From: a bacterium
GTDB taxonomy: Bacteria > Patescibacteriota > Saccharimonadia > Saccharimonadales > JAUPVS01
Assembly: GCA_029780855.1 (NCBI GenBank)
Contig: JAKOXV010000024.1
Location: 43,275-107,274, forward strand
Direction of reading: 5' to 3'
Length of the DNA stretch: 64,000 nucleotides
Shown here: positions 2,098 to 27,936 of the stretch, in pieces
How positions within the stretch are numbered: the first letter of the stretch is position 1
How the letters are laid out: each line of letters starts with the position of its first letter
Program-made: the position numbers and the translations under genes
The notes under the pieces: generated by a model
The model's input: the letters and a program-made list of their open reading frames with translations, nothing else
Told to the model about the DNA's origin: nothing
Databases searched by the model: none

Positions 2098-4665
2098 TTA
2101 CCTGAGATGAATGGTGGTACCGTCGTCAGAACTGGGGGATGGTACTATCTGGCTAGTTTCCTGCTTGTTGAAGGGGGAGTCAGTTGTTTTCTTTTTGCGG
2201 CGCCGAGTTCGTTTGCGCTTGGGCTTTTCCGGTACCGGGTCAATCATTACCTCAGTAGCTACCGGGGTAAGGTGCGTTTCAGGTTTTGGATCGGGCTGTT
2301 GAGATTTATCGGCTTGTGGTGGCGTTGGCTTGGGCGATTTCTTTTGATTGTTTTGAGTATTTTTTTGCACGGTATTCGCTAGCTGCTGGGGCGTAATGTA
2401 GCGGTCTTGCACATAGACCTCTACATCGGCACGTGTAATCGCGAATTGCTCACGGCTATGGGCGATTATCTCATCGCTAAAATCATCGGTCTGCTGTGGC
2501 AGATTAAGGCTGAAAGCAGAAAAAGCTGGTACTTTTTCACCATCAATCGTCATACTGATTATAAAATTGCGGTTGTGCATGTGCACTAGATCATACTCCG
2601 TAAACTTGGGCTCAAAGTAGCGAGCCATGGTGCGGGCATCGTCCGCACTGGAACGGAAGGAAATAATTGACCCGACGTTCCCAAACACCGCGTCTTTTAC
2701 CGTATCCATCATCTGTGCAATGTACTGGTTTGCAACCGTCAAGTTCAGGGCATACTTACGGGCTTCTGACAAAATCGTCGCAAATGAATCAGTCGCAAAG
2801 TTCTGGAACTCGTCCACATACAGATAGAACGGAACACGATCTTTTTCATCAATATCTGCACGGGACATTGCACCCATCTGGATTTTGGTTACCATCAATG
2901 CACCAAGCAGCGAAGCGTTATCTTCGCCAATCAGACCTCGGGACAGATTTACAATCAATATTTTCCGATCATCCATAATCTGCCGAATATTAAAGCTACT
3001 CTTGGGCTGGCCGATGATATTCCGCACAATCGGGTTAGCAGTAAAGGCGCCCACCTTGTTCAAAACTGGCGCAACAGCTTCGGTGGCGAACTTATCATTC
3101 CAGCTCGCAAACTCAACGTTCCAAAAATTTATCACTACCGGGTCAGTTACGTGCGAAACAACATCTTTACGGAAACTTTTATCGGTGAGCATTCTGGTAA
3201 TATCCAGCATGGTAGCATCGGGGTACTCAATGAGCGCCAGCAGAGTGTAGCGCAAAATGTACTCCAGCCGTGGGCCCCATGATTCAAACATGCGCTTCAA
3301 GACCCCAATAAGTTCAGATACCGTTGTGGTGCGAAGTTTAGGATCGCCAACTTCCAGAGGGTTAAACGCAATTGGGAAGTCGGTATCAGCAGGATTAAAG
3401 TAAATAACGTCTTTGGCACGTTCACGGGGTATGCGCTTTAGAATGTTGATGGCATAATCGCCGTGCGGATCGATGACCGCAAACCCGTGGGGGCTGTAGA
3501 TATCGGAGATAGTAAGTAGTTCCAGCATACCGGACTTACCGGTACCGGTCTGACCAATGATATAAAGGTGGCGTGAACGGTCCTGCCGCAACAGCCCAAA
3601 CATAGTGTTGTGCCCCCGAAAGTTAGTGACCGCAATAGGGGAGAGGTCGGCATGATATTCATTTCCTTCAACAATCGGCAATGTTGCTGGCGGCTCGGCG
3701 GTAGCGGTCGATGACCACAAGATATTTGGTGTTTCCACGCTGGTATGAGGTAGGTGATACAAACTAGCTACCTCTTCAATATTCATGGTAAAGCCCGGGC
3801 CTTTATAGCGTCGTTCGGCAAATAGCTGGATTCCATGTGGTTCAGCGGTAATGTACTTTTCAGTAAATCCGTTCAGGTAAGTAGAATTAAACTGCTTAAA
3901 ACTGGATATAATCGCCTGCACCCGCATGCGAGCTTGAGAAGGAGAAGTAACCCCCCGGTAGACCAGCCGAATTGCTGCTTCATAGGCTATTTTTTGGCTC
4001 TTTTGTTCAGCGCCACTGATCTGAGCGTTTTGATACTCACTGAGCTGTGCTGGCTTTCCATCAGATTGCTCTGGTGGCGCCCATAGAGCCCCGGCTATGC
4101 CTTTCATGCCGCTACCTTTGGCTGCTTTCATATTAGCAATGTATTTTTCTGTCTTCTTGTACCAGTTTTCTGTTGCTGGCTGAACAAGAACTTGAATCCA
4201 CGCCTCTTCGTTCATCTCAAACTTGGCTAACGTAGCGGTGATCGCAGCCAACGGGTCAACCTCAAAACTGGGAAACGTTTTGATAGGCAACACATCGTTT
4301 TTGGTAAATTTGAGTTCAGCAGTAAGTTGGGTTACGTGATCTTGCTCTGGAGGAACTACGGCGTAATCATCTATTCGTGTTATATGAACAGTAGGGTACT
4401 GGGCGTAAATCTGTTCCTCTACGAAGCTTTCCAGCTCGCGCGGAACCCAAATATAAAAACCGATCCGCTTTTGTTTAACGGCAATTTCCATACTTATTCG
4501 TTCGCGCGCCTGTTTAGAAGATCCGTAGGAAGACAGCAACAACCCATGCACGCTGGCAAACATCTGCTCGGCGGCAAGCTCTTTTTTGTCGTTCGTGCGG
4601 GGAACCTGCAAGAGAAGGGTAACACCGTCGGCGGTATGAGTTGGTGCTTTTTTAAATAGTCGCAT
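2098..4665 (-). CDS. type IV secretion coupling-protein-like ATPase (VirD4/TraG/TraD family) with K/P-rich C-terminal tail
   Basis: 855 aa. Walker A GQTGTGKSG and Walker B-like YLYVDEFQNF. Overall resemblance to T4SS DNA-binding/coupling ATPases. C-terminal ~100 aa are low-complexity (KKSPKPTPPQADK...KRKRTRRRKKK). Confidence 0.75.
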   Translation of the reverse strand: MRLFKKAPTHTADGVTLLLQVPRTNDKKELAAEQMFASVHGLLLSSYGSSKQARERISMEIAVKQKRIGFYIWVPRELESFVEEQIYAQYPTVHITRIDDYAVVPPEQDHVTQLTAELKFTKNDVLPIKTFPSFEVDPLAAITATLAKFEMNEEAWIQVLVQPATENWYKKTEKYIANMKAAKGSGMKGIAGALWAPPEQSDGKPAQLSEYQNAQISGAEQKSQKIAYEAAIRLVYRGVTSPSQARMRVQAIISSFKQFNSTYLNGFTEKYITAEPHGIQLFAERRYKGPGFTMNIEEVASLYHLPHTSVETPNILWSSTATAEPPATLPIVEGNEYHADLSPIAVTNFRGHNTMFGLLRQDRSRHLYIIGQTGTGKSGMLELLTISDIYSPHGFAVIDPHGDYAINILKRIPRERAKDVIYFNPADTDFPIAFNPLEVGDPKLRTTTVSELIGVLKRMFESWGPRLEYILRYTLLALIEYPDATMLDITRMLTDKSFRKDVVSHVTDPVVINFWNVEFASWNDKFATEAVAPVLNKVGAFTANPIVRNIIGQPKSSFNIRQIMDDRKILIVNLSRGLIGEDNASLLGALMVTKIQMGAMSRADIDEKDRVPFYLYVDEFQNFATDSFATILSEARKYALNLTVANQYIAQMMDTVKDAVFGNVGSIISFRSSADDARTMARYFEPKFTEYDLVHMHNRNFIISMTIDGEKVPAFSAFSLNLPQQTDDFSDEIIAHSREQFAITRADVEVYVQDRYITPQQLANTVQKNTQNNQKKSPKPTPPQADKSQQPDPKPETHLTPVATEVMIDPVPEKPKRKRTRRRKKKTTDSPFNKQETSQIVPSPSSDDGTTIHLR

Positions 4666-4807: not shown

Positions 4808-6046
4808 ATGATTGATGATATTGTGCCGCCGGGTCCGCCCGAGCAGCCAAATAAAAATGCGCCGCGAAGCGAAAAACCCCCAAAAACGACTGAACTACCA
4901 AAGAAAGAAGCATCGGAAAATACCGATTCTCATCCTGCAGAGTTTGCAATTTCGGGTCATAAGTACGTCAAAGATCGCCGATCGTTCCGGATTTGGCCGA
5001 GTCATCTGGCCAAGAAATGGCAGATACTTATCGGGGCGGGTATTTTTTTAGTTACCGCTGGAGTTATTGGCGGTATCCTCTGGTATCAGCACACCCACAA
5101 ACCAAAGGTCACTAAACCGGTGGTAGTAACCAAAAAAGCTCCACCGCCGGCGCCCACAACCGTAGCATCACCCCTGACAGGAGTGCAAGTTACACCAGAA
5201 TTGGCTAAACACATCGTAACCGGTGTAATGATAGAGAACAGTCCCGATGCCAGACCTCAGTCAGGCCTCAAGGATGCCGGCGTGGTTTACGAAGCTATCG
5301 CTGAGGGCGGTATAACCCGCTTTTTGGCTCTATTCCAGGAAGCAACGCCCGATTACATCGGCCCAGCTAGAAGTGCCCGGCCATACTACCTTGACTGGGT
5401 ACTGCCCTATGATGCCGGCTATGCTCATGTAGGTGGCAGCCCCGAGGCGCTCGCCCAGATCAAGCAGCTCGGAATTAAAGACATGGATCAGTTCTATAAC
5501 AGCGCCTACTACTGGCGAGTAAGTAATCGTTACGCGCCCCACAATATGTACACCAGCATAGCCAAGCTTAATGAGGGTGAAGCCAAAAAAGGCTGGACAA
5601 CAAGCAACTTTACCGGCTTCGCCCGTAAAGCAAAAGAAGAGCCGGCCGCTACTCCGACCGCCAAGAGTATTGATTTTGCCATCTCTAGTTACCTATACAA
5701 TGTGCACTATGATTATGATGCCGCCACCAATTCTTACCTTAGGAGCGAGGGCGGTAAACCACATATGGACGAAAAGTCCAACTCACAGCTTGCGCCAAAA
5801 GTGGTTATTGCGCTGGGCATGCACCACTCTATAGAGGCTGATGGTTACCACAGCGCCTACGCCACCGTAGGTTCTGGTCCGATGTTCGTGTTTCAGGATG
5901 GCGTACAGACTCAAGGCACCTGGACTAAGGCAGACAGAGGCTCTCAGTTCACCTTTACTGATGCAAACGGCAAGCCGCTAAAACTGAACCCCGGACAAAC
6001 GTGGATAACTATGGTTGAGGGCGCCAGTAGCATTACGGCGCAATAA
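4808..6046 (+). CDS. DUF3048-like secreted/membrane-anchored protein
   Basis: N-terminal TM helix followed by PLTG...ENSPDARPQSGL...VVYEAIAEGGITRFLALF, typical of the DUF3048 family. Confidence 0.75.
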   Translation: MIDDIVPPGPPEQPNKNAPRSEKPPKTTELPKKEASENTDSHPAEFAISGHKYVKDRRSFRIWPSHLAKKWQILIGAGIFLVTAGVIGGILWYQHTHKPKVTKPVVVTKKAPPPAPTTVASPLTGVQVTPELAKHIVTGVMIENSPDARPQSGLKDAGVVYEAIAEGGITRFLALFQEATPDYIGPARSARPYYLDWVLPYDAGYAHVGGSPEALAQIKQLGIKDMDQFYNSAYYWRVSNRYAPHNMYTSIAKLNEGEAKKGWTTSNFTGFARKAKEEPAATPTAKSIDFAISSYLYNVHYDYDAATNSYLRSEGGKPHMDEKSNSQLAPKVVIALGMHHSIEADGYHSAYATVGSGPMFVFQDGVQTQGTWTKADRGSQFTFTDANGKPLKLNPGQTWITMVEGASSITAQ

Positions 6047-13358: not shown

Positions 13359-13433
13359 TGGTGACCTCACGGGGAATCGAACCCCGATTGCCAGGATGAG
13401 AACCTGGTGTCCTAACCGTTAGACGATGAGGCC
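13359..13433 (-). tRNA. tRNA-Glu (anticodon CUC), CCA encoded
   Basis: The reverse complement GGCCTCATCGTCTAACGGTTAGGACACCAGGTTCTCATCCTGGCAATCGGGGTTCGATTCCCCGTGAGGTCACCA folds as a cloverleaf. It has a 7-bp acceptor stem, anticodon loop UUCUCAU, T-loop GGTTCGATTCC, and is 75 nt long. Confidence 0.93.
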
Positions 13434-22643: not shown

Positions 22644-23501
22644 ATGAAAGTTCGCACCCTAACCGCCAAATCTGGCACCATGCCGGCTCGCTTGTTACAG
22701 GTGAGCCCTCCTCCCAGCAAACTGTTTGTCCTGGGCGACACACTAGAATCGTTACTCAAAAAGCCGTGTTTGGCTGTTGTTGGTAGCAGAGCTGTCAGCC
22801 CTTATGGTCGACTGGTAACAACCGAGCTTGTGGAAGCAGCGGCCCGAGCGGGCGTTACCATCATAAGCGGTCTAGCACTTGGGGTGGACGGCCTAGCACA
22901 CTATGCCGCCTTGAACGCTCACGGGGGCACTATAGCAGTACTGCCGTCGCATGTGACAGAAGTGTATCCCGCCTCACACCGGCAGTTGGCTCAGCAGATA
23001 CTCCAAAATGGTGGGGTATTGGTGTCGGAATATCCTCCCGGGACGAATGCCCGCCGAGAGAATTTCATCGAGCGGAACAGATTAGTATCAGGTTTAGCAG
23101 ATGCCGTACTTATTACAGAAGCAGCCGAAAAGAGCGGCACGCTCCATACCGCCCGCTTTGCATTAGAGCAGGGAAGAGATGTCTTGGTAGTACCCGGGAA
23201 TATCAACAGCCCAAATAGCAAGGGGACGAATACCCTCCTAAAGGCAGGTGCCGAACCCATAACGTGTCCAGAGGACATACTCGGGCACTTTAACATCCAC
23301 GAAACAACAGAACAGATGGAGCTCATTGGTAATAATGCTGAGGAGCAGGTTATTTTGGATCTACTACGGCAAGGTGTAACCGATGCTAGTGAACTCCATG
23401 CCCTCAGCAAGCTCGCTACCCATACGTTTAATCAGACCCTTACCATGCTAGAAATCTCTGGCAGGATTAAACCATCTGCTGGTAACTGGTATCTGTTATA
23501 G
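22644..23501 (+). CDS. dprA: DNA-processing protein DprA
   Basis: LAVVGSRAVSPYG...IISGLALGVDG.AH...GGTIAVL matches the DprA Rossmann-like domain. A C-terminal winged-helix-like tail is present. Confidence 0.9.
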   Translation: MKVRTLTAKSGTMPARLLQVSPPPSKLFVLGDTLESLLKKPCLAVVGSRAVSPYGRLVTTELVEAAARAGVTIISGLALGVDGLAHYAALNAHGGTIAVLPSHVTEVYPASHRQLAQQILQNGGVLVSEYPPGTNARRENFIERNRLVSGLADAVLITEAAEKSGTLHTARFALEQGRDVLVVPGNINSPNSKGTNTLLKAGAEPITCPEDILGHFNIHETTEQMELIGNNAEEQVILDLLRQGVTDASELHALSKLATHTFNQTLTMLEISGRIKPSAGNWYLL

Positions 23502-23503
23502 TC

Positions 23504-23532
23504 TTGTATAATTATCGATAATATGCTATAAT
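23504..23532 (+). promoter_or_regulatory. candidate promoter of GC-rich cassette A
   Basis: TTGTAT (23504-23509), 17-nt spacer, TATAAT (23527-23532). Followed by the palindrome AGCAAATTGCT. Confidence 0.5.
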
Positions 23533-23580
23533 TAGCTAGTTTTAGCAAATTGCTGGAACGCACCTGAACAAGGAGTAGAT

Positions 23581-24006
23581 ATGTACAAGCGGTATGTGAT
23601 CGCCGCCCTGGTGTTCTTTGCGCTCATCATGGTTGGGGCCGGCTTCGTCGCCAACAACGACCCGTTTGACACGGGAAGCCCGTGGATGAACTGGCTGACC
23701 CTGAGCGTTGGTGGTTTCATCGGCGTGTTCATCGCCCTGATGACCTTCATCGGCTCTTGGGAGTCGAAGGGAATCTCCGATGAAGGCGAACGTTGGGTGG
23801 TCTTCTGTGTCAGCGTGGTTGGAACGGCGTTCTTCGGAGCCATGATCGTGGGGATCATCCTGGATGGCGCCTCAGATACGTCAGCCCATCTCGGATGGAC
23901 GACCTACGGTGTCTCCCTGATCCTCATGAACGTGGCCTACCTGGTCATGTACCTGATGCCGGAGCCCAAGTCCGCCGATGCCCTCAGCCTGCACCGAGCC
24001 GCGTAG
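23581..24006 (+). CDS. small 4-TM membrane protein (GC-rich cassette A)
   Basis: 141 aa. AAGGAG lies 5 nt before the ATG. Strong GC3 bias (a 60-nt line scored 37/60 GC vs 24/60 in topA). Four hydrophobic helices. No family recognised. Confidence 0.75.
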   Translation: MYKRYVIAALVFFALIMVGAGFVANNDPFDTGSPWMNWLTLSVGGFIGVFIALMTFIGSWESKGISDEGERWVVFCVSVVGTAFFGAMIVGIILDGASDTSAHLGWTTYGVSLILMNVAYLVMYLMPEPKSADALSLHRAA

Positions 24007-24018
24007 GACCATGTCGCC

Positions 24019-24069
24019 GGAGCCGGGGAAATCTTTCTAACGTCGATGACGTTATGAAACCCCGGCTCC
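24019..24069 (+). other. compound GC-rich hairpin after cassette A ORF
   Basis: Outer stem GGAGCCGGGG/CCCCGGCTCC (10 bp) encloses an inner hairpin AACGTC-gat-GACGTT. No U-run follows. Confidence 0.7.
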
Positions 24070-24092
24070 CACCTTTCTCCTTGTTCAATTTT

Positions 24093-24143
24093 CGCTTCCA
24101 TAACTGTGTAGTTATGCTGATGAGTCCAAAAGGACGAAAAGCG
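24093..24143 (+). ncRNA. hammerhead ribozyme, type III topology (copy 1)
   Basis: CGCUU-C17 | CAUAACU-GUGU-AGUUAUG | CUGAUGA | GUCC-AAAA-GGAC | GAA | A-AGCG. All invariant core positions are present. Stem III is 5 bp, stem I 7 bp, stem II 4 bp. Predicted cleavage falls between 24098 and 24099. Confidence 0.9.
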
Positions 24144-24151
24144 TAAGAATA

Positions 24152-24180
24152 TTGACTTATTTACAATTTTAGTATAAAAT
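24152..24180 (+). promoter_or_regulatory. near-consensus sigma70-type promoter inside the hammerhead-bounded unit
   Basis: TTGACT (24152-24157), 17-nt spacer, TAAAAT (24175-24180). It begins 9 nt after ribozyme copy 1. Confidence 0.6.
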
Positions 24181-24444
24181 ACTGTAGTCACAACCAGTGA
24201 CACATCAAGAAGCAGAACCTTTACACCACATACCCAACCAGAAAGGAGCCTTTGGCTCTCTAGTAGTACCAAGGTAAAACCGCACAAATTATACTCTCGG
24301 ATAATTTGCACGGACCACTTGCTTTCCATAGGTGCCGTAGCGGCGCACATGGAAGAAGCAGATGTGAAGAGGAGTGGATACGAATCTTCACCTGCTACAT
24401 GCTACACCTGGCAATACCCCATTGGCCGAGAGGAGAAGATCCCG

Positions 24445-24642
24445 ATGGGTAAGCGGTACACTCTACGTTGCGGATCCCCGCGACCCCAGTTCCGTAACTG
24501 GGAGATCGTGTGGGAGATGCACGGCACCGTCCACTTCTGCACCGTGCAGCTCTCCGTCCGCATTACCGAACCGGAGCTGGTGCGCGCTGCTGCAGACGTG
24601 CCTGACGAGGCCGAGGCCTACATCGTGCCCTTGCTGGCATAG
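24445..24642 (+). CDS. small hypothetical protein, 65 aa (GC-rich cassette B)
   Basis: GAGAGGAGAAG lies upstream of ATG 24445. The frame gives a plausible sequence (MGKRYTLRCGSPRPQFRNWEIVWEMHGTVHFCTVQLSVRITEPELVRAAADVPDEAEAYIVPLLA). The alternative 141-aa frame is R/S/P/C-rich junk. Confidence 0.55.
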   Translation: MGKRYTLRCGSPRPQFRNWEIVWEMHGTVHFCTVQLSVRITEPELVRAAADVPDEAEAYIVPLLA

Positions 24643-24805
24643 ATCAAGCCTACGTGCGAGAGAGAAACGAGTACGGAAACTCGTAAAAAATCCTGTAATA
24701 CTTCGGGGAAGTTCCGGAGCGCCTCCGTTTCAGTGTGTTCGTGCACGATTCGGCCAAAGCGGTCAACTATACCTTTCTCTCTATTCTTCTGCTTCTTGAT
24801 ACACA

Positions 24806-24856
24806 CGCTTCCATAACTGTGTAGTTATGCTGATGAGTCCAAAAGGACGAAAAGCG
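24806..24856 (+). ncRNA. hammerhead ribozyme, type III topology (copy 2, identical to copy 1)
   Basis: Same 51 nt as 24093-24143. Predicted cleavage falls between 24811 and 24812. Confidence 0.9.
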
Positions 24857-24860
24857 TATA

Positions 24861-25046
24861 ATGAAAACTGAAATGGAAACAAAACATCTCATATATATAA
24901 TGGTGGCAATATTTTCTACTCTTGGTGGATGGCTCGGTGGCATCATGGACCACGGTAATTTCTTGGGGATGTGGAGTATATTGCTGGCTGGTATAGGCGG
25001 TTTTGTAGGCGTATACGTAGGCTACAAGATCGGTAACAATACCTAA
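24861..25046 (+). CDS. small Gly-rich membrane protein (GlsB/YeaQ/YmgE-like?)
   Basis: 61 aa, two TM helices with GGWLGG and GIGGFVG motifs. Native low GC. ATG 24873 is an alternative start. Confidence 0.6.
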   Translation: MKTEMETKHLIYIMVAIFSTLGGWLGGIMDHGNFLGMWSILLAGIGGFVGVYVGYKIGNNT

Positions 25047-25129: not shown

Positions 25130-27421
25130 ATGGCAAAAAATCTCGTTATTGTTGAAAGCCCCGCTAAAGCCAAGACTATAGAAAAGTACTTAGGCAAAGA
25201 CTACGTTGTTAAAAGCAGCTTTGGTCATATTCGTGATTTACCCAAAAAGGGAATTAGTATTGCTATCGATAAGGGGTTTGAACCGACCTATGAAGTTAGC
25301 AGTGATAAGAAAAAAGTTGTAGCCGAACTTAAGAAGCTTGCTAAAACAGCCGAAAACGTCTGGCTAGCAAGTGACGAAGACCGCGAAGGAGAGGCAATTG
25401 CCTGGCATTTATGCAAGGCGCTCGGATTAGATGATAAAACGACTAAGCGCATTGTCTTCCATGAGATAACCAAACCAGCCATTTTGAGCGCCATAGAGCA
25501 GCCTAGAACAGTAGATAAAGACCTCGTTGATGCCCAACAGGCTCGCCGTGTTCTAGACCGTTTAGTCGGCTATGAGCTTTCACCGGTACTTTGGAAAAAA
25601 GTACGGACTGGTTTGAGCGCTGGCCGCGTACAATCCGTCGCAGTACGATTGATTGTGGAACGTGAACGAGAAATAAAGGATTTTAACCCTGAAGTTAGTT
25701 ACAAGGTAACGGGGCTATTTGACGCCAAAGGCACCGAACTCCCCGCTGAACTACCGAATAAGCTCGCCGATGAAGTAGCCGCGACGGCATTCTTAGAAGA
25801 CTGCAAACATGCAACATTTAGCGTCTCAGCAATTGAAGCAAAGCCAGGCACCCGCAACCCTAGTGCTCCATTCACTACCAGCAGTCTCCAGCAAGAAGCC
25901 GCCCGCAAGCTTGGCTATTCCGTACGCCAAACTATGACCCTGGCACAGCGGCTGTATGAAAATGGACACATTACCTATATGCGTACCGACAGTACCAACC
26001 TAGCCGGTCAGGCGATTGCCGCCGCCGAAGCCTATATCCAGAAAAACTTCGGTAAGGAGTACCATCAGGTTCGCCAGTATAAAACCAAAGCTGCCGGTGC
26101 ACAGGAAGCGCACGAAGCGATTCGCCCAACCGACTTTGCAGTAACGAGCGCAGGATCAGATGCGCAGCAGAAAAAGCTCTATGAACTCATCTGGAAGCGA
26201 ACGCTTGCGAGCCAGATGGCTCCCGCTAAAATCGAACGGACAGAGGTGAGCATTTCACTATCAAACCGGACCGAAACATTGCTCGCAAAAGGGGAAGTTT
26301 TAACGTTCGACGGCTTCATTAAGGTGTACGGAGGCGGCAAAGACGACACTATCCTACCGCCAATGGGACAAGGCCAGGATCTGCCGCTTGTAAGCATGAA
26401 GGCTACCCAATCATTCAGTAAACCAGCAGCCCGGTATTCTGAGGCAAGCTTGGTGAAGAAGCTAGAAGACTTAGGTATCGGCCGCCCAAGTACCTACGCG
26501 CCGACCATCAGCACCATTCAAACCCGCGGGTACGTCGAGAAAAGTGATCTGGAGGGAACCGAGCGTACCGTTCGAGAACTTACACTTATGAAGGGAAGCA
26601 TCACCACCTCTGATAGAACAGAGGTGACCGGTGCCGACAAAAACAAACTGCTACCAACCCACATCGCTGAGATGACAACCGATTTCTTGGTTAAGCATTT
26701 TGCGTCGATTGTCGATTACGATTTCACCGCAAAGGCCGAAAAAGGGTTCGACGATATCGCCGATGGCAAAGAGAAGTGGAACACCATGATCGCCGATTTT
26801 TATAAAGATTTTCATCCCCTTATTGATAAAGCAGCAGATGTTTCCCGCGAGGAGACTTCACAGGCAAGGGAGCTCGGAAAAGACCCTAAAAGCGGTAAGC
26901 CGGTGATAGCCCGTTATGGCCGATACGGCGCCATGCTACAGATTGGTGAAGCAGAAGACGAGGAAAAGCCTCGATTTGCGCCATTGCCAGATGGAGCGAC
27001 CCTAGAAACGGTCACCTATGACCAAGCCATGGAAATGTTCAAACTACCCCGCACGGTAGGAAAAACCGAAGACGGAGAAGACATTAAGGCAAACGTGGGA
27101 CGGTTTGGTCCCTACATTCAGGTCGGTAAATTGTTTGTATCAATAAAAGGTCAGGATCCACTCACTATTACCGAAGCAGAGGCGCGCCAAGCTTACGGCG
27201 AAAAGCTCAAAAAAGACGCCGATAAGTACATAGCTGAATTTGATAGTGGCATAAAGATTGTAAATGGCCCCTATGGACCGTACATCACAAACGGCAAAAA
27301 GAATGCCCGTATCCCTAAAGAAACCGATCCAAAAAAACTTTCAGAGGCCGAGTGCAAGGAAATACTCGACAAAGCTCCGGATAAAAAAAGACGCTTTACT
27401 CGTCGCAAAAAAACCAGCTAG
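25130..27421 (+). CDS. topA: DNA topoisomerase I
   Basis: 763 aa. TOPRIM start LVIVESPAKAKTIEKYLG, active-site region ITYMRTDS, and a lysine-rich C-terminal tail. Confidence 0.96.
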   Translation: MAKNLVIVESPAKAKTIEKYLGKDYVVKSSFGHIRDLPKKGISIAIDKGFEPTYEVSSDKKKVVAELKKLAKTAENVWLASDEDREGEAIAWHLCKALGLDDKTTKRIVFHEITKPAILSAIEQPRTVDKDLVDAQQARRVLDRLVGYELSPVLWKKVRTGLSAGRVQSVAVRLIVEREREIKDFNPEVSYKVTGLFDAKGTELPAELPNKLADEVAATAFLEDCKHATFSVSAIEAKPGTRNPSAPFTTSSLQQEAARKLGYSVRQTMTLAQRLYENGHITYMRTDSTNLAGQAIAAAEAYIQKNFGKEYHQVRQYKTKAAGAQEAHEAIRPTDFAVTSAGSDAQQKKLYELIWKRTLASQMAPAKIERTEVSISLSNRTETLLAKGEVLTFDGFIKVYGGGKDDTILPPMGQGQDLPLVSMKATQSFSKPAARYSEASLVKKLEDLGIGRPSTYAPTISTIQTRGYVEKSDLEGTERTVRELTLMKGSITTSDRTEVTGADKNKLLPTHIAEMTTDFLVKHFASIVDYDFTAKAEKGFDDIADGKEKWNTMIADFYKDFHPLIDKAADVSREETSQARELGKDPKSGKPVIARYGRYGAMLQIGEAEDEEKPRFAPLPDGATLETVTYDQAMEMFKLPRTVGKTEDGEDIKANVGRFGPYIQVGKLFVSIKGQDPLTITEAEARQAYGEKLKKDADKYIAEFDSGIKIVNGPYGPYITNGKKNARIPKETDPKKLSEAECKEILDKAPDKKRRFTRRKKTS

Positions 27422-27525: not shown

Positions 27526-27936
27526 ATGGCGGAGCTGCAACAGAGCACCGAGGCACGGTTGAGCGAACTGATGTACCATCCGGATTCCCGGATACATAAT
27601 TGGGAAGACGAGGTCATGATGCTCGTGTACCGCCTGCTTGGTGAACATCAGCAGGCTACCTGGCGCGAGGCCGAACGGCACTACATGAACTGGTGGGCCA
27701 GCGCTCGGCATATCGACAAGAAGGATCTACAGCGCAGCATCGATTCTCTTCCGGGACTGTCGGTGCACATCAAAGCCGCTCTCCGTCGTGCACACATCAC
27801 CACCATCGGGATGCTTCTGTATCTGACAGATGAAGAGCTGCTGCAGGTCAAGAACATCGGTGAAGCACGCCTCAAGATCATCAATGAGGCTCTCAAGAAG
27901 ACCCGGCTGGCTCGCTACAAGCGGTCCGCACGATGA
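27526..27936 (+). CDS. small protein with RNA-polymerase alpha-CTD-like helix-hairpin-helix domain (GC-rich cassette C)
   Basis: 136 aa with GC3-rich codons. LSVHIKAALRRAHITTIGMLLYLTDEELLQVKNIGEARLKIINEALKK resembles the alpha-CTD consensus (LSVRAxNCLKxAxIxTIGDLxxxTEEELLxIxNFGxKSLxEI). Confidence 0.65.
   Translation: MAELQQSTEARLSELMYHPDSRIHNWEDEVMMLVYRLLGEHQQATWREAERHYMNWWASARHIDKKDLQRSIDSLPGLSVHIKAALRRAHITTIGMLLYLTDEELLQVKNIGEARLKIINEALKKTRLARYKRSAR

Follow-up and report, generated by a model that had tools for sequence, protein, structure and literature searches.

Twin type III hammerhead ribozymes as candidate 3' ends of two tandem small-gene cassettes between dprA and topA in a Saccharimonadales genome

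Clusters of hammerhead ribozymes around small bacterial genes have been on record for more than a decade. Multiple hammerheads flank single genes of variable identity in prophages, for which processing into gene-length mRNAs has been proposed (Perreault et al. 2011, PMC3088659), and such ribozymes flank small, nonconserved open reading frames (ORFs), the role of the hundreds of hammerheads in bacterial and phage DNA being described as an open question (review 2017, PMC6155905). Another set of relatives, the plant and animal retrozymes and viroid-like circular RNAs, is noncoding, multicopy, and dispersed, and circles have been demonstrated for it (PMC7761336). Here we examine a 64,000-nucleotide (nt) stretch of a Saccharimonadales genome (hereafter "the window"), in which two identical type III hammerheads, HHR-1 and HHR-2, lie on the same strand between dprA and topA. 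An earlier reading of this DNA (the original prediction) had presented the promoter-carrying, protein-coding unit between the pair as without known precedent in a CPR-like genome; this was too strong, as hammerheads flanking single small nonconserved genes were described in 2011, and the twin arrangement as such is already known (PMC3088659; PMC6155905). Our analysis indicates that the window most likely holds two modules in tandem, with HHR-1 ending cassette A and HHR-2 ending cassette B. We think the chances somewhat better than even that these are autonomous small-gene cassettes, placed one after the other in a variable dprA-topA slot and each terminated by a hammerhead that makes its 3' end.

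The two ribozymes are contained in an exact 53-nt direct repeat on the plus strand (24093 to 24145 and 24806 to 24858), with starts 713 nt apart. By direct sequence reading, stem III of both copies is CGCUU/AAGCG with U16.1-A15.1 closing, stem I is CAUAACU/AGUUAUG with the loop GUGU, and stem II is GUCC/GGAC with the loop AAAA and the G10.1-C11.1 pair present. All core nucleotides (CUGAUGA and GAA) are canonical in both, and residue 17 is a C (24098 in HHR-1 and 24811 in HHR-2), in keeping with the hammerhead rule that N17 is not G. A type III descriptor written for this analysis found just these two sites on both strands of the 64 kb. The minimum free energy (MFE) structure of the isolated 63-nt motif is a three-way junction in which stems I and II are looped and stem III is open, and all 16 hammerhead pairs are present in the MFE structure of each full-length single-module transcript (A and B).

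Comparison with other hammerheads supports this assignment. The pattern of core plus stem II matches more than 120 IMG/VR contigs, and in 50 of 125 such matches the surrounding sequence completes a type III hammerhead of the window's architecture. We aligned 44 phage hammerheads, with the window excluded, and derived a covariance model; stems I and III vary freely in this alignment yet remain paired, the percentage of paired positions being partly circular, given that the sequences were picked with a pairing descriptor, and the pair diversity being unaffected by that choice. The phage-only model recovers HHR-1 at 62.9 bits and HHR-2 at 61.8 bits (E of ~1e-16), end to end including stem III and with no noncanonical pair, scores that are inflated by a training set retrieved with the window's own core and stem II pattern (23 nt common by design). 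The same model also finds ribozymes of relatives with other stem II sequences (locus L123, 37.6 bits; L numbers designate related loci throughout). Among 107 aligned cellular relatives, 98.2% of cells are paired (33 to 44% in slid-partner controls), two-sided changes occur at 13 of 15 pairs, and N17 is C in 75, A in 17, U in 15, and G in none. On the strength of the phage-model score, the covariation in these 107 relatives, and the consistent avoidance of G at N17, we regard both copies as genuine type III hammerheads that are probably active. The original prediction that the repeats thread as canonical type III hammerheads was thus borne out by direct reading, descriptor, MFE, and phage model alike.

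The window belongs with L170 to a subtype defined by loop II AAAA, A15.2, and a UUH cleavage site (UUC, UUA, or UUU). This subtype occurs in at least 120 metagenome contigs and had 0 matches among IMG/VR viral contigs. Many of its members have a stem I nearly as in the window, together with a conserved motif directly 5' of the ribozyme (...GTCTGCTTGTCAT...).

What surrounds the ribozyme is also shared. About 38 nonredundant loci have the same order of parts, namely promoter, 5' hairpin, 5' box, GC-rich ORF, 3' untranslated region (UTR), a 3' box complementary to the 5' box, a gap of 3 to 5 nt, and the hammerhead. At 41% of 68 nonredundant sites, the sequence directly 5' of the ribozyme has a perfect complement of 10 nt or more located 126 to 1,126 nt upstream, compared with 0% for both controls (reversed arm and downstream kilobase). 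Duplex energies computed with mismatches allowed likewise favor the upstream side over the controls (p = 1e-4 and 6e-6). The two boxes covary, in that their sequences are unrelated between modules and always complementary within one; TGACAAGCAGAC, TGACAAACAGATG, TGACATGTAGACA, TAACAGATAGATAGT, GTTTGATTCGTAGAT, and the window's ATCAAGAAGCAGAA each have their exact complement beside the ribozyme. Between the boxes lies one GC-rich ORF of 70 to 330 amino acids (aa), with a GC content of 0.5 to 0.68 in the module interior against 0.32 to 0.5 in the flanks. Of 31 modules, 23 have a sigma-70-like promoter in the 90 nt ahead of the 5' box and none has one at a control position; a short hairpin lies between promoter and box. 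In 28 of 31 cases, 3 to 5 nt separate the end of the 3' box from stem III, so that the spacer is nearly fixed. Long-range pairing is absent from the phage hammerhead set, where apparent matches are repeated local palindromes; a local hairpin occupies the box position in the phage family and at 10 of 70 cellular sites. A predicted helix abutting the ribozyme is therefore general across the phage and cellular families. We also asked whether promoters tend to come after the ribozyme and abandoned this notion, as no downstream enrichment was found (9 of 66, against 5 of 66 on the opposite strand).

The cargo carried between these constant ends is diverse. The 38 ORFs fall into 29 unrelated clusters, and a Pfam search with ten cargo proteins returned only DUF2807 and a subthreshold antitoxin-domain match, so that nearly all cargos are orphans. 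The gene that follows the ribozyme is codirectional in just 41 of 66 cases, which makes the upstream cargo the ribozyme's constant partner.

This last point bears on whether the hammerhead serves the gene behind it. RiboJ, an engineered hammerhead insulator derived from sTRSV (the satellite RNA of tobacco ringspot virus), sits at the 5' end of the gene that it regulates. A ribozyme acting in the same way here would cut read-through from dprA to topA and give the mRNA of topA and the 61-aa gene ahead of it a structured 5'-OH end. Hammerheads do lie 65 to 100 nt upstream of topA in L170, L123, and L312, the body of a type III ribozyme stays on the 3' product, and such a role would fit the proposed processing into gene-length mRNAs (PMC3088659). 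Against it stand the family-wide codirectionality count, the location of all conserved partners (box, promoter, and cargo) upstream of the ribozyme, and the promoter after HHR-1, which makes 5' processing largely redundant for module B. We therefore consider insulation of the downstream gene distinctly improbable. The same upstream location and the same count argue for a ribozyme that makes 3' ends, as do the generality of the helix abutting the ribozyme and the complete folding of the hammerhead within each single-module transcript.

In the mechanism that we favor, transcription would start at the cassette's own promoter, and the hammerhead, once transcribed, would fold and cleave itself, leaving the cargo mRNA with a 2',3'-cyclic phosphate about 10 nt beyond the helix in which the 5' leader and the 3' end of this mRNA come together. 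This closing helix, along with the 5' hairpin, would protect both RNA ends, while the ribozyme body would remain on any read-through RNA, uncoupled from the cargo. The hammerhead would in this way create a 3' end without need of a terminator and yield a stable mRNA whose ends are defined. We infer both the cleavage in vivo and the stabilizing role.

Both modules of the window contain every part of the cassette (Table 1). In module B, the 5' hairpin lies at the predicted start, and the closing helix forms with 14 of 14 pairs in the MFE structure of the predicted processed RNA (24187 to 24811), with a pair probability of 0.96. The near-consensus promoter that the original prediction had placed in this interval was confirmed, and the structured leader and small gene that it had proposed downstream were likewise substantiated. 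Sequence comparison indicates that the 65-aa ORF is a real coding gene, as it shares 39% identity with the cargo of the L312 module (pairwise E = 9e-17). The window and L312 modules align end to end, with identity highest in the coding region and the ribozyme, and the L312 3' UTR shares short stretches with that of module B (e.g., CYGTAATACT). A word-seeded protein search with the 65-aa ORF gave no match; an exhaustive phmmer (HMMER) search gave 14 relatives of the cargo, a small family with several members of 63 to 66 aa. In 2 of 7 recovered contexts of this family, a hammerhead follows 170 to 230 nt after the stop codon. The AlphaFold2 (AF2) model of the 65-aa cargo is a beta-beta-beta-alpha-beta fold (predicted local distance difference test score [pLDDT], 79), for which a fold search against the PDB found nothing below E = 0.3. 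Pfam and PHROG searches of the interior and the neighboring small ORFs were uninformative.

Some further features of the module B family were noted. At L329, in a hammerhead (791 to 843) that follows a gene homologous to the 65-aa cargo, the pair A15.1-U16.1, otherwise invariant, is reversed to U15.1-A16.1, and stem II is different; it may be a decaying or variant ribozyme. In the module B leader, 24353 to 24371 forms a second, imperfect (79%) complement of the 3' box region (24779 to 24797), and AAGAAGCAGA occurs there twice (24208 to 24217 and 24353 to 24362). The 3' box of module B could pair with the stretch from 24353 to 24371 instead.

Module A carries a 141-aa cargo for which no Pfam family scored above the cut-off, and the identical protein is encoded on an independent contig of the Logan assemblies. 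Controls for its 11-nt box never gave more than 9 nt. The 5' box overlaps the Shine-Dalgarno (SD) sequence in this module (23565 to 23575, pairing with 24078 to 24088) as well as in L322, L273, and L314. It is possible that in such modules the 3' box is an anti-SD sequence and that the closing helix gates translation too.

Table 1. Predicted parts of the two modules and the borders of the dprA-topA slot (window coordinates)
Feature	Position	Strand	Basis or remark
dprA, conserved left border of slot	22644..23501	+	Pfam DNA_processg_A, E = 2.4e-70; upstream of topA in Saccharibacteria relatives
Module A promoter, extended -10 TGcTATAAT	23524..23532	+	Sequence reading; not picked up by two-hexamer scan
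Module A 5'-terminal hairpin	23539..23559	+	9 bp in MFE of 23539-23580, z = -3.45
Module A 5' box TGAACAAGGAG, contains SD AAGGAG	23565..23575	+	Perfect 11-nt complement of 24078-24088
Module A cargo ORF, 141 aa, membrane-like, GC-rich	23581..24006	+	ORF list
Module A 3'-UTR GC-rich hairpin, without U tract	24019..24069	+	MFE -32.8 kcal/mol, z = -5.11
Module A 3' box CTCCTTGTTCA	24078..24088	+	Complement of 23565-23575; position of the family's conserved ...CTGCTTGTCA... flank
Hammerhead 1 (HHR-1), type III	24093..24143	+	Predicted cleavage 24098/24099; exact repeat extends to 24145
Module B promoter TTGACT-17-TAAAAT	24152..24180	+	10/12 consensus matches
Module B 5'-terminal hairpin GUCAC-AACCA-GUGAC	24187..24201	+	MFE -6.4 kcal/mol, z = -2.96; present in full-transcript MFE
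Module B 5' box ATCAAGAAGCAGAA	24204..24217	+	Perfect 14-nt complement of 24787-24800
Module B cargo ORF, 65 aa, SD GGAG upstream	24445..24642	+	Homologous to L312 cargo
Module B structured 3' UTR	24643..24786	+	Hairpins in MFE
Module B 3' box TTCTGCTTCTTGAT	24787..24800	+	Family's conserved ribozyme 5' flank; spacer to ribozyme, 5 nt
Hammerhead 2 (HHR-2), type III	24806..24856	+	Predicted cleavage 24811/24812; exact repeat extends to 24858
61-aa membrane protein, slot's native gene, outside the cassettes	24861..25046	+	Homologous to L137 57-aa ORF
topA, conserved right border of slot	25130..27421	+	Pfam Topoisom_bac, E = 2.4e-115

The dprA-topA slot itself is variable. The closest relatives of the window's TopA are from Saccharimonadales metagenome-assembled genomes (~70% identity). 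In about 10 relatives, the dprA-topA interval is 29 to 160 nt long and effectively empty; about 10 further relatives have other small inserts there; and L123, L170, and L312 have one hammerhead each in the slot. The 1,632 nt of the window is the largest value among the relatives compared. In the closest relative, L137, the slot holds only a gene for a 57-aa membrane protein, and no hammerhead was found there even with search filters off. This protein is 51% identical to the window's 61-aa ORF (E = 3e-14), and the material between dprA and the 61-aa gene is therefore extra in the window's lineage. The order in L312 is dprA, one module with the orthologous 65-aa cargo, hammerhead, and topA, while L170 and L123 have one module each with other cargo. 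Relatives thus carry 0, 1, or 2 modules in the slot, which indicates evolutionary turnover; the original prediction had called for this comparison, and it shows that the arrangement is not constant. The neighbors are dprA, small membrane proteins, and topA, with no PHROG match and no integrase or phage genes nearby. In other Saccharimonadales, hammerheads were also seen downstream of topA, one in L125 (9167 to 9232) and two in tandem in L250 (3292 and 4048 of the oriented copy), so that several gaps between conserved genes are used by the cassettes. Between the 57-aa ORF and topA of L137, 350 nt of GC-rich sequence (5650 to 5990) contains a duplicated motif of ~35 nt (CTTGAGTRCCCARYGCGT...GCGAGGAAC) and long palindromic stretches, and it could be a structured RNA that fills the slot in place of a hammerhead cassette.

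A single hammerhead is usual in the family, and tandem placement of such modules recurs. Same-strand hammerheads 0.5 to 1.4 kb apart are found in L203, L215, L228, L250, L267, and L269. The two ribozymes of L215, and likewise those of L228, have separate box partners, which makes these pairs two modules in a row, and their ribozyme copies are identical at 43 to 45 of 53 positions. The 713-nt spacing in the window would likewise arise because cassette B directly follows cassette A. What sets the window apart is an identity of 100% that covers exactly the ribozyme plus 2 bp, the adjacent boxes being different; such identity was found elsewhere only in L267. It points to a recent duplication, gene conversion, or recombination between cassette ends. 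In L267 (1 to 1142), the adjacent modules have 158 nt in common at the 5' end (98%) and 84 nt of hairpin and hammerhead in common at the 3' end (100%), with different cargo in between, which looks like cargo swapped between conserved cassette ends.

These identities raise the question of exchange at the DNA level, in which the ~50-bp hammerhead DNA would serve as a homology or attachment site and the 53-bp repeats would be recent junctions, a process compatible with a role in RNA. The abrupt limits of the identity, the 43 to 45 matches in other tandem pairs, the shared ends and differing cargo of L267, the varying number and cargo of modules in the slot, and a cassette GC content unlike that of the host genome are all what such exchange would leave. 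There is, however, no recombinase, integrase, or transposase nearby; no target-site duplication was identified; the slot of the closest relative, L137, offers no hammerhead as a landing site; and gene conversion between neighboring copies could explain the identity equally well. On balance, we consider DNA-level exchange unlikely. We give a little less weight still to a broader idea, that the cassette system is mobile in Saccharibacteria and perhaps in other bacteria, its ribozyme-plus-box ends being both RNA-processing signals and handles for movement. Movement could then proceed by recombination at the near-identical ribozyme DNA or through an RNA intermediate that is end-paired or, where two ribozymes flank it, circularized. 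If this were true, the identical ribozymes of the window would mark a freshly captured insertion or a duplication. How the cassettes are acquired is, again, something we infer.

The original prediction had taken the 713-nt stretch between the two cleavage sites as the functional unit, circular and retrozyme-like, and had offered the integration of a circular element as the origin of the repeats. Read-through across both ribozymes would release an RNA of 713 nt (24099 to 24811) with 5'-OH and 2',3'-cyclic phosphate ends, which would be ligated, and the DNA copy would be the integrated form. The two identical same-strand hammerheads are predicted to be cleavage competent at this spacing, the unit is highly structured (linear MFE z of approximately -5 against mononucleotide shuffles), the helix of 5' and 3' boxes would also close a rod, and the possibility of circles was raised for clustered bacterial hammerheads by Perreault et al. 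(PMC3088659). That study, however, sought circles in three tandem arrangements and found none (PMC3088659). In addition, the recurrent family unit runs from a promoter to one 3' hammerhead, with a covarying helix, and not from hammerhead to hammerhead; HHR-1 belongs to its own upstream cassette with the 141-aa ORF; and the promoter downstream of HHR-1 means that most module B RNA would carry a 5' triphosphate instead of a 5'-OH. Folded as a circle, the RNA is no more stable (-243.0 kcal/mol) than in linear form (-249.7 kcal/mol), and the unit encodes a conserved protein, unlike retrozymes. A blastn search of the unit against GenBank phages gave no match, nor did one of the interior and its flanks against 120 related metagenome loci, and the window holds no further copy. 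Neither the circular unit nor its integration was therefore supported, and we regard a circular RNA as very unlikely.

Several observations weigh against the reading of tandem 3'-end-making cassettes. With RF00008, even in sensitive (E-value) mode, the window's hammerhead scored 20.9 bits against a gathering threshold of 48.5 (E = 0.13), a local match to model positions 9 to 47, and at gathering no hammerhead was reported from the whole window; the original prediction had named a score below that threshold as grounds for giving up the ribozymes. We read the shortfall as a limit of the Rfam seed alignment, such that Hammerhead_3 misses this whole subfamily at gathering; the related L323 ribozyme scores 41.8 bits. 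The association with a box is also incomplete, with neither a perfect long-range box nor a local hairpin at 29 of 70 sites under strict criteria. In module A, the box helix contributes 0 of 11 pairs to the MFE structure of the whole transcript, which makes this module less secure than module B. Three of the seven contexts of the 65-aa cargo family have no hammerhead, and a search of these contexts for other ribozyme classes found none, so that this cargo is not strictly dependent on the hammerhead. Only ~7 loci are demonstrably from Saccharimonadales.

Two further points in the same direction each suggest an explanation of their own. A composition-corrected test of G.U versus A.C asymmetry, intended to distinguish an RNA helix from a DNA inverted repeat, did not favor the RNA strand. 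This result would suit boxes that are terminal inverted repeats of a DNA element, recognized by a protein, as would their position on either side of 450 to 1,000 bp of foreign GC content. Yet the boxes vary freely while staying complementary, as protein-recognized terminal repeats do not. The 5' box comes after the promoter, within the transcribed leader; the 3' box keeps a fixed distance from the ribozyme; other members have a local hairpin where the long-range helix would be; and there is no associated transposase. The free covariation, leader position, fixed spacing, and hairpin replacement are our reasons for treating the boxes as an RNA helix, and we think it highly improbable that they are DNA repeats instead.

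The second point concerns the assembly. Independent Logan contigs break exactly at both repeat copies, and the interior was not recovered from that assembly with three versions of the ORF, so that the order of cassette A, hammerhead, cassette B, hammerhead rests on the window's own assembly. A chimeric join at the 53-nt repeat, with module B belonging elsewhere or to another strain, would produce the same picture. Such breaks are nevertheless expected from a k=31 graph for a true two-copy repeat, the L312 module, with its orthologous cargo, also sits between dprA and topA, and tandem modules are present in other contigs. We accordingly attach very little credence to an artifact, and we retain the view of two hammerhead-terminated cassettes in tandem.

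Other element types were considered and rejected. A retron, an integron attC site, an insertion sequence or miniature inverted-repeat transposable element, and a type III toxin-antitoxin system would each call for a reverse transcriptase, integrase, transposase, or tandem short repeats, of which there were none; no reverse transcriptase was noticed among the ORFs at 20 to 29 kb. Elsewhere in the window, the sole Rfam match at gathering is a tRNA (13362 to 13433, minus strand, 60.9 bits). Just 3' of topA, a stand-alone 136-aa ORF (27526 to 27936) has an RNA_pol_A_CTD domain (Pfam, E = 4e-10), and an RNA_pol_A_CTD gene also follows topA on the independent contig L122. The first 2,000 nt of the window have a GC content of 0.62 to 0.64, against ~0.47 elsewhere, and long overlapping ORFs in several frames with no Pfam match; they adjoin a gene for a VirD4/TraG-like type IV coupling protein (2098 to 4665, minus strand) and may be foreign DNA.

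With the twin arrangement already on record, what appears to be new is a cellular, nonviral subfamily of hammerheads, its location in housekeeping slots of Saccharibacteria, and a cassette that runs from promoter to ribozyme with a covarying helix from end to end. A search of the searchable literature found nothing that links hammerheads to Saccharibacteria, Patescibacteria, or TM7 or that describes the closing helix. The open question of what bacterial hammerheads do thereby takes a concrete and testable form, namely that the ribozyme is the last element of a self-contained expression cassette. If this is true, such cassettes would be a natural way to stable mRNAs with defined ends, independent of intrinsic terminators, and the ribozyme would be a marker for accessory orphan genes in the Saccharibacteria, with their small genomes and epibiotic lifestyle. 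The modules could also furnish a natural parts list for synthetic-biology insulators.

The comparison with known systems can now be drawn more closely. As in the prophage and bacterial clusters of Perreault et al. (2011), several same-strand hammerheads lie close together here and flank small nonconserved ORFs of variable identity; unlike clusters located in a prophage or near integrase genes, ours lie among chromosomal housekeeping genes (dprA-topA) of Saccharibacteria. The ribozymes also match the architecture of a large phage type III family, which has a stem I of 6 to 8 bp with a UGWGUR loop and a stem II of GUCC-NAAA-GGAC. Here, every ribozyme comes with a promoter of its own and with a long-range closing helix that covaries and that the phage set lacks. 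With RiboJ they share the type III fold, the GUCC/GGAC stem II, a position between transcription units, defined RNA ends, and an adjacent helix that insulates the fold. They differ in that the conserved partner is the upstream gene, the ribozyme would set a 3' rather than a 5' end, and the adjacent helix is a long-range one formed with the cassette's own 5' leader. As in retrozymes, two direct type III hammerheads delimit a unit of ~700 nt whose cleavage would give 5'-OH and 2',3'-cyclic phosphate ends, but here a conserved protein is encoded, a promoter lies inside the unit, the unit is single copy, and the upstream ribozyme belongs to another cassette.

A last analogy may be drawn with phage morons and the gene cassettes of integrons. 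Morons bring their own promoter, and integron cassettes do not. By analogy with both, the modules may be viewed as small accessory genes of foreign composition and very diverse function set between conserved genes, with a structured 3' element and a tendency to form tandem arrays. Unlike integron cassettes, they have no integrase or attC site, and their conserved 3' element is a predicted self-cleaving ribozyme that would act on RNA.

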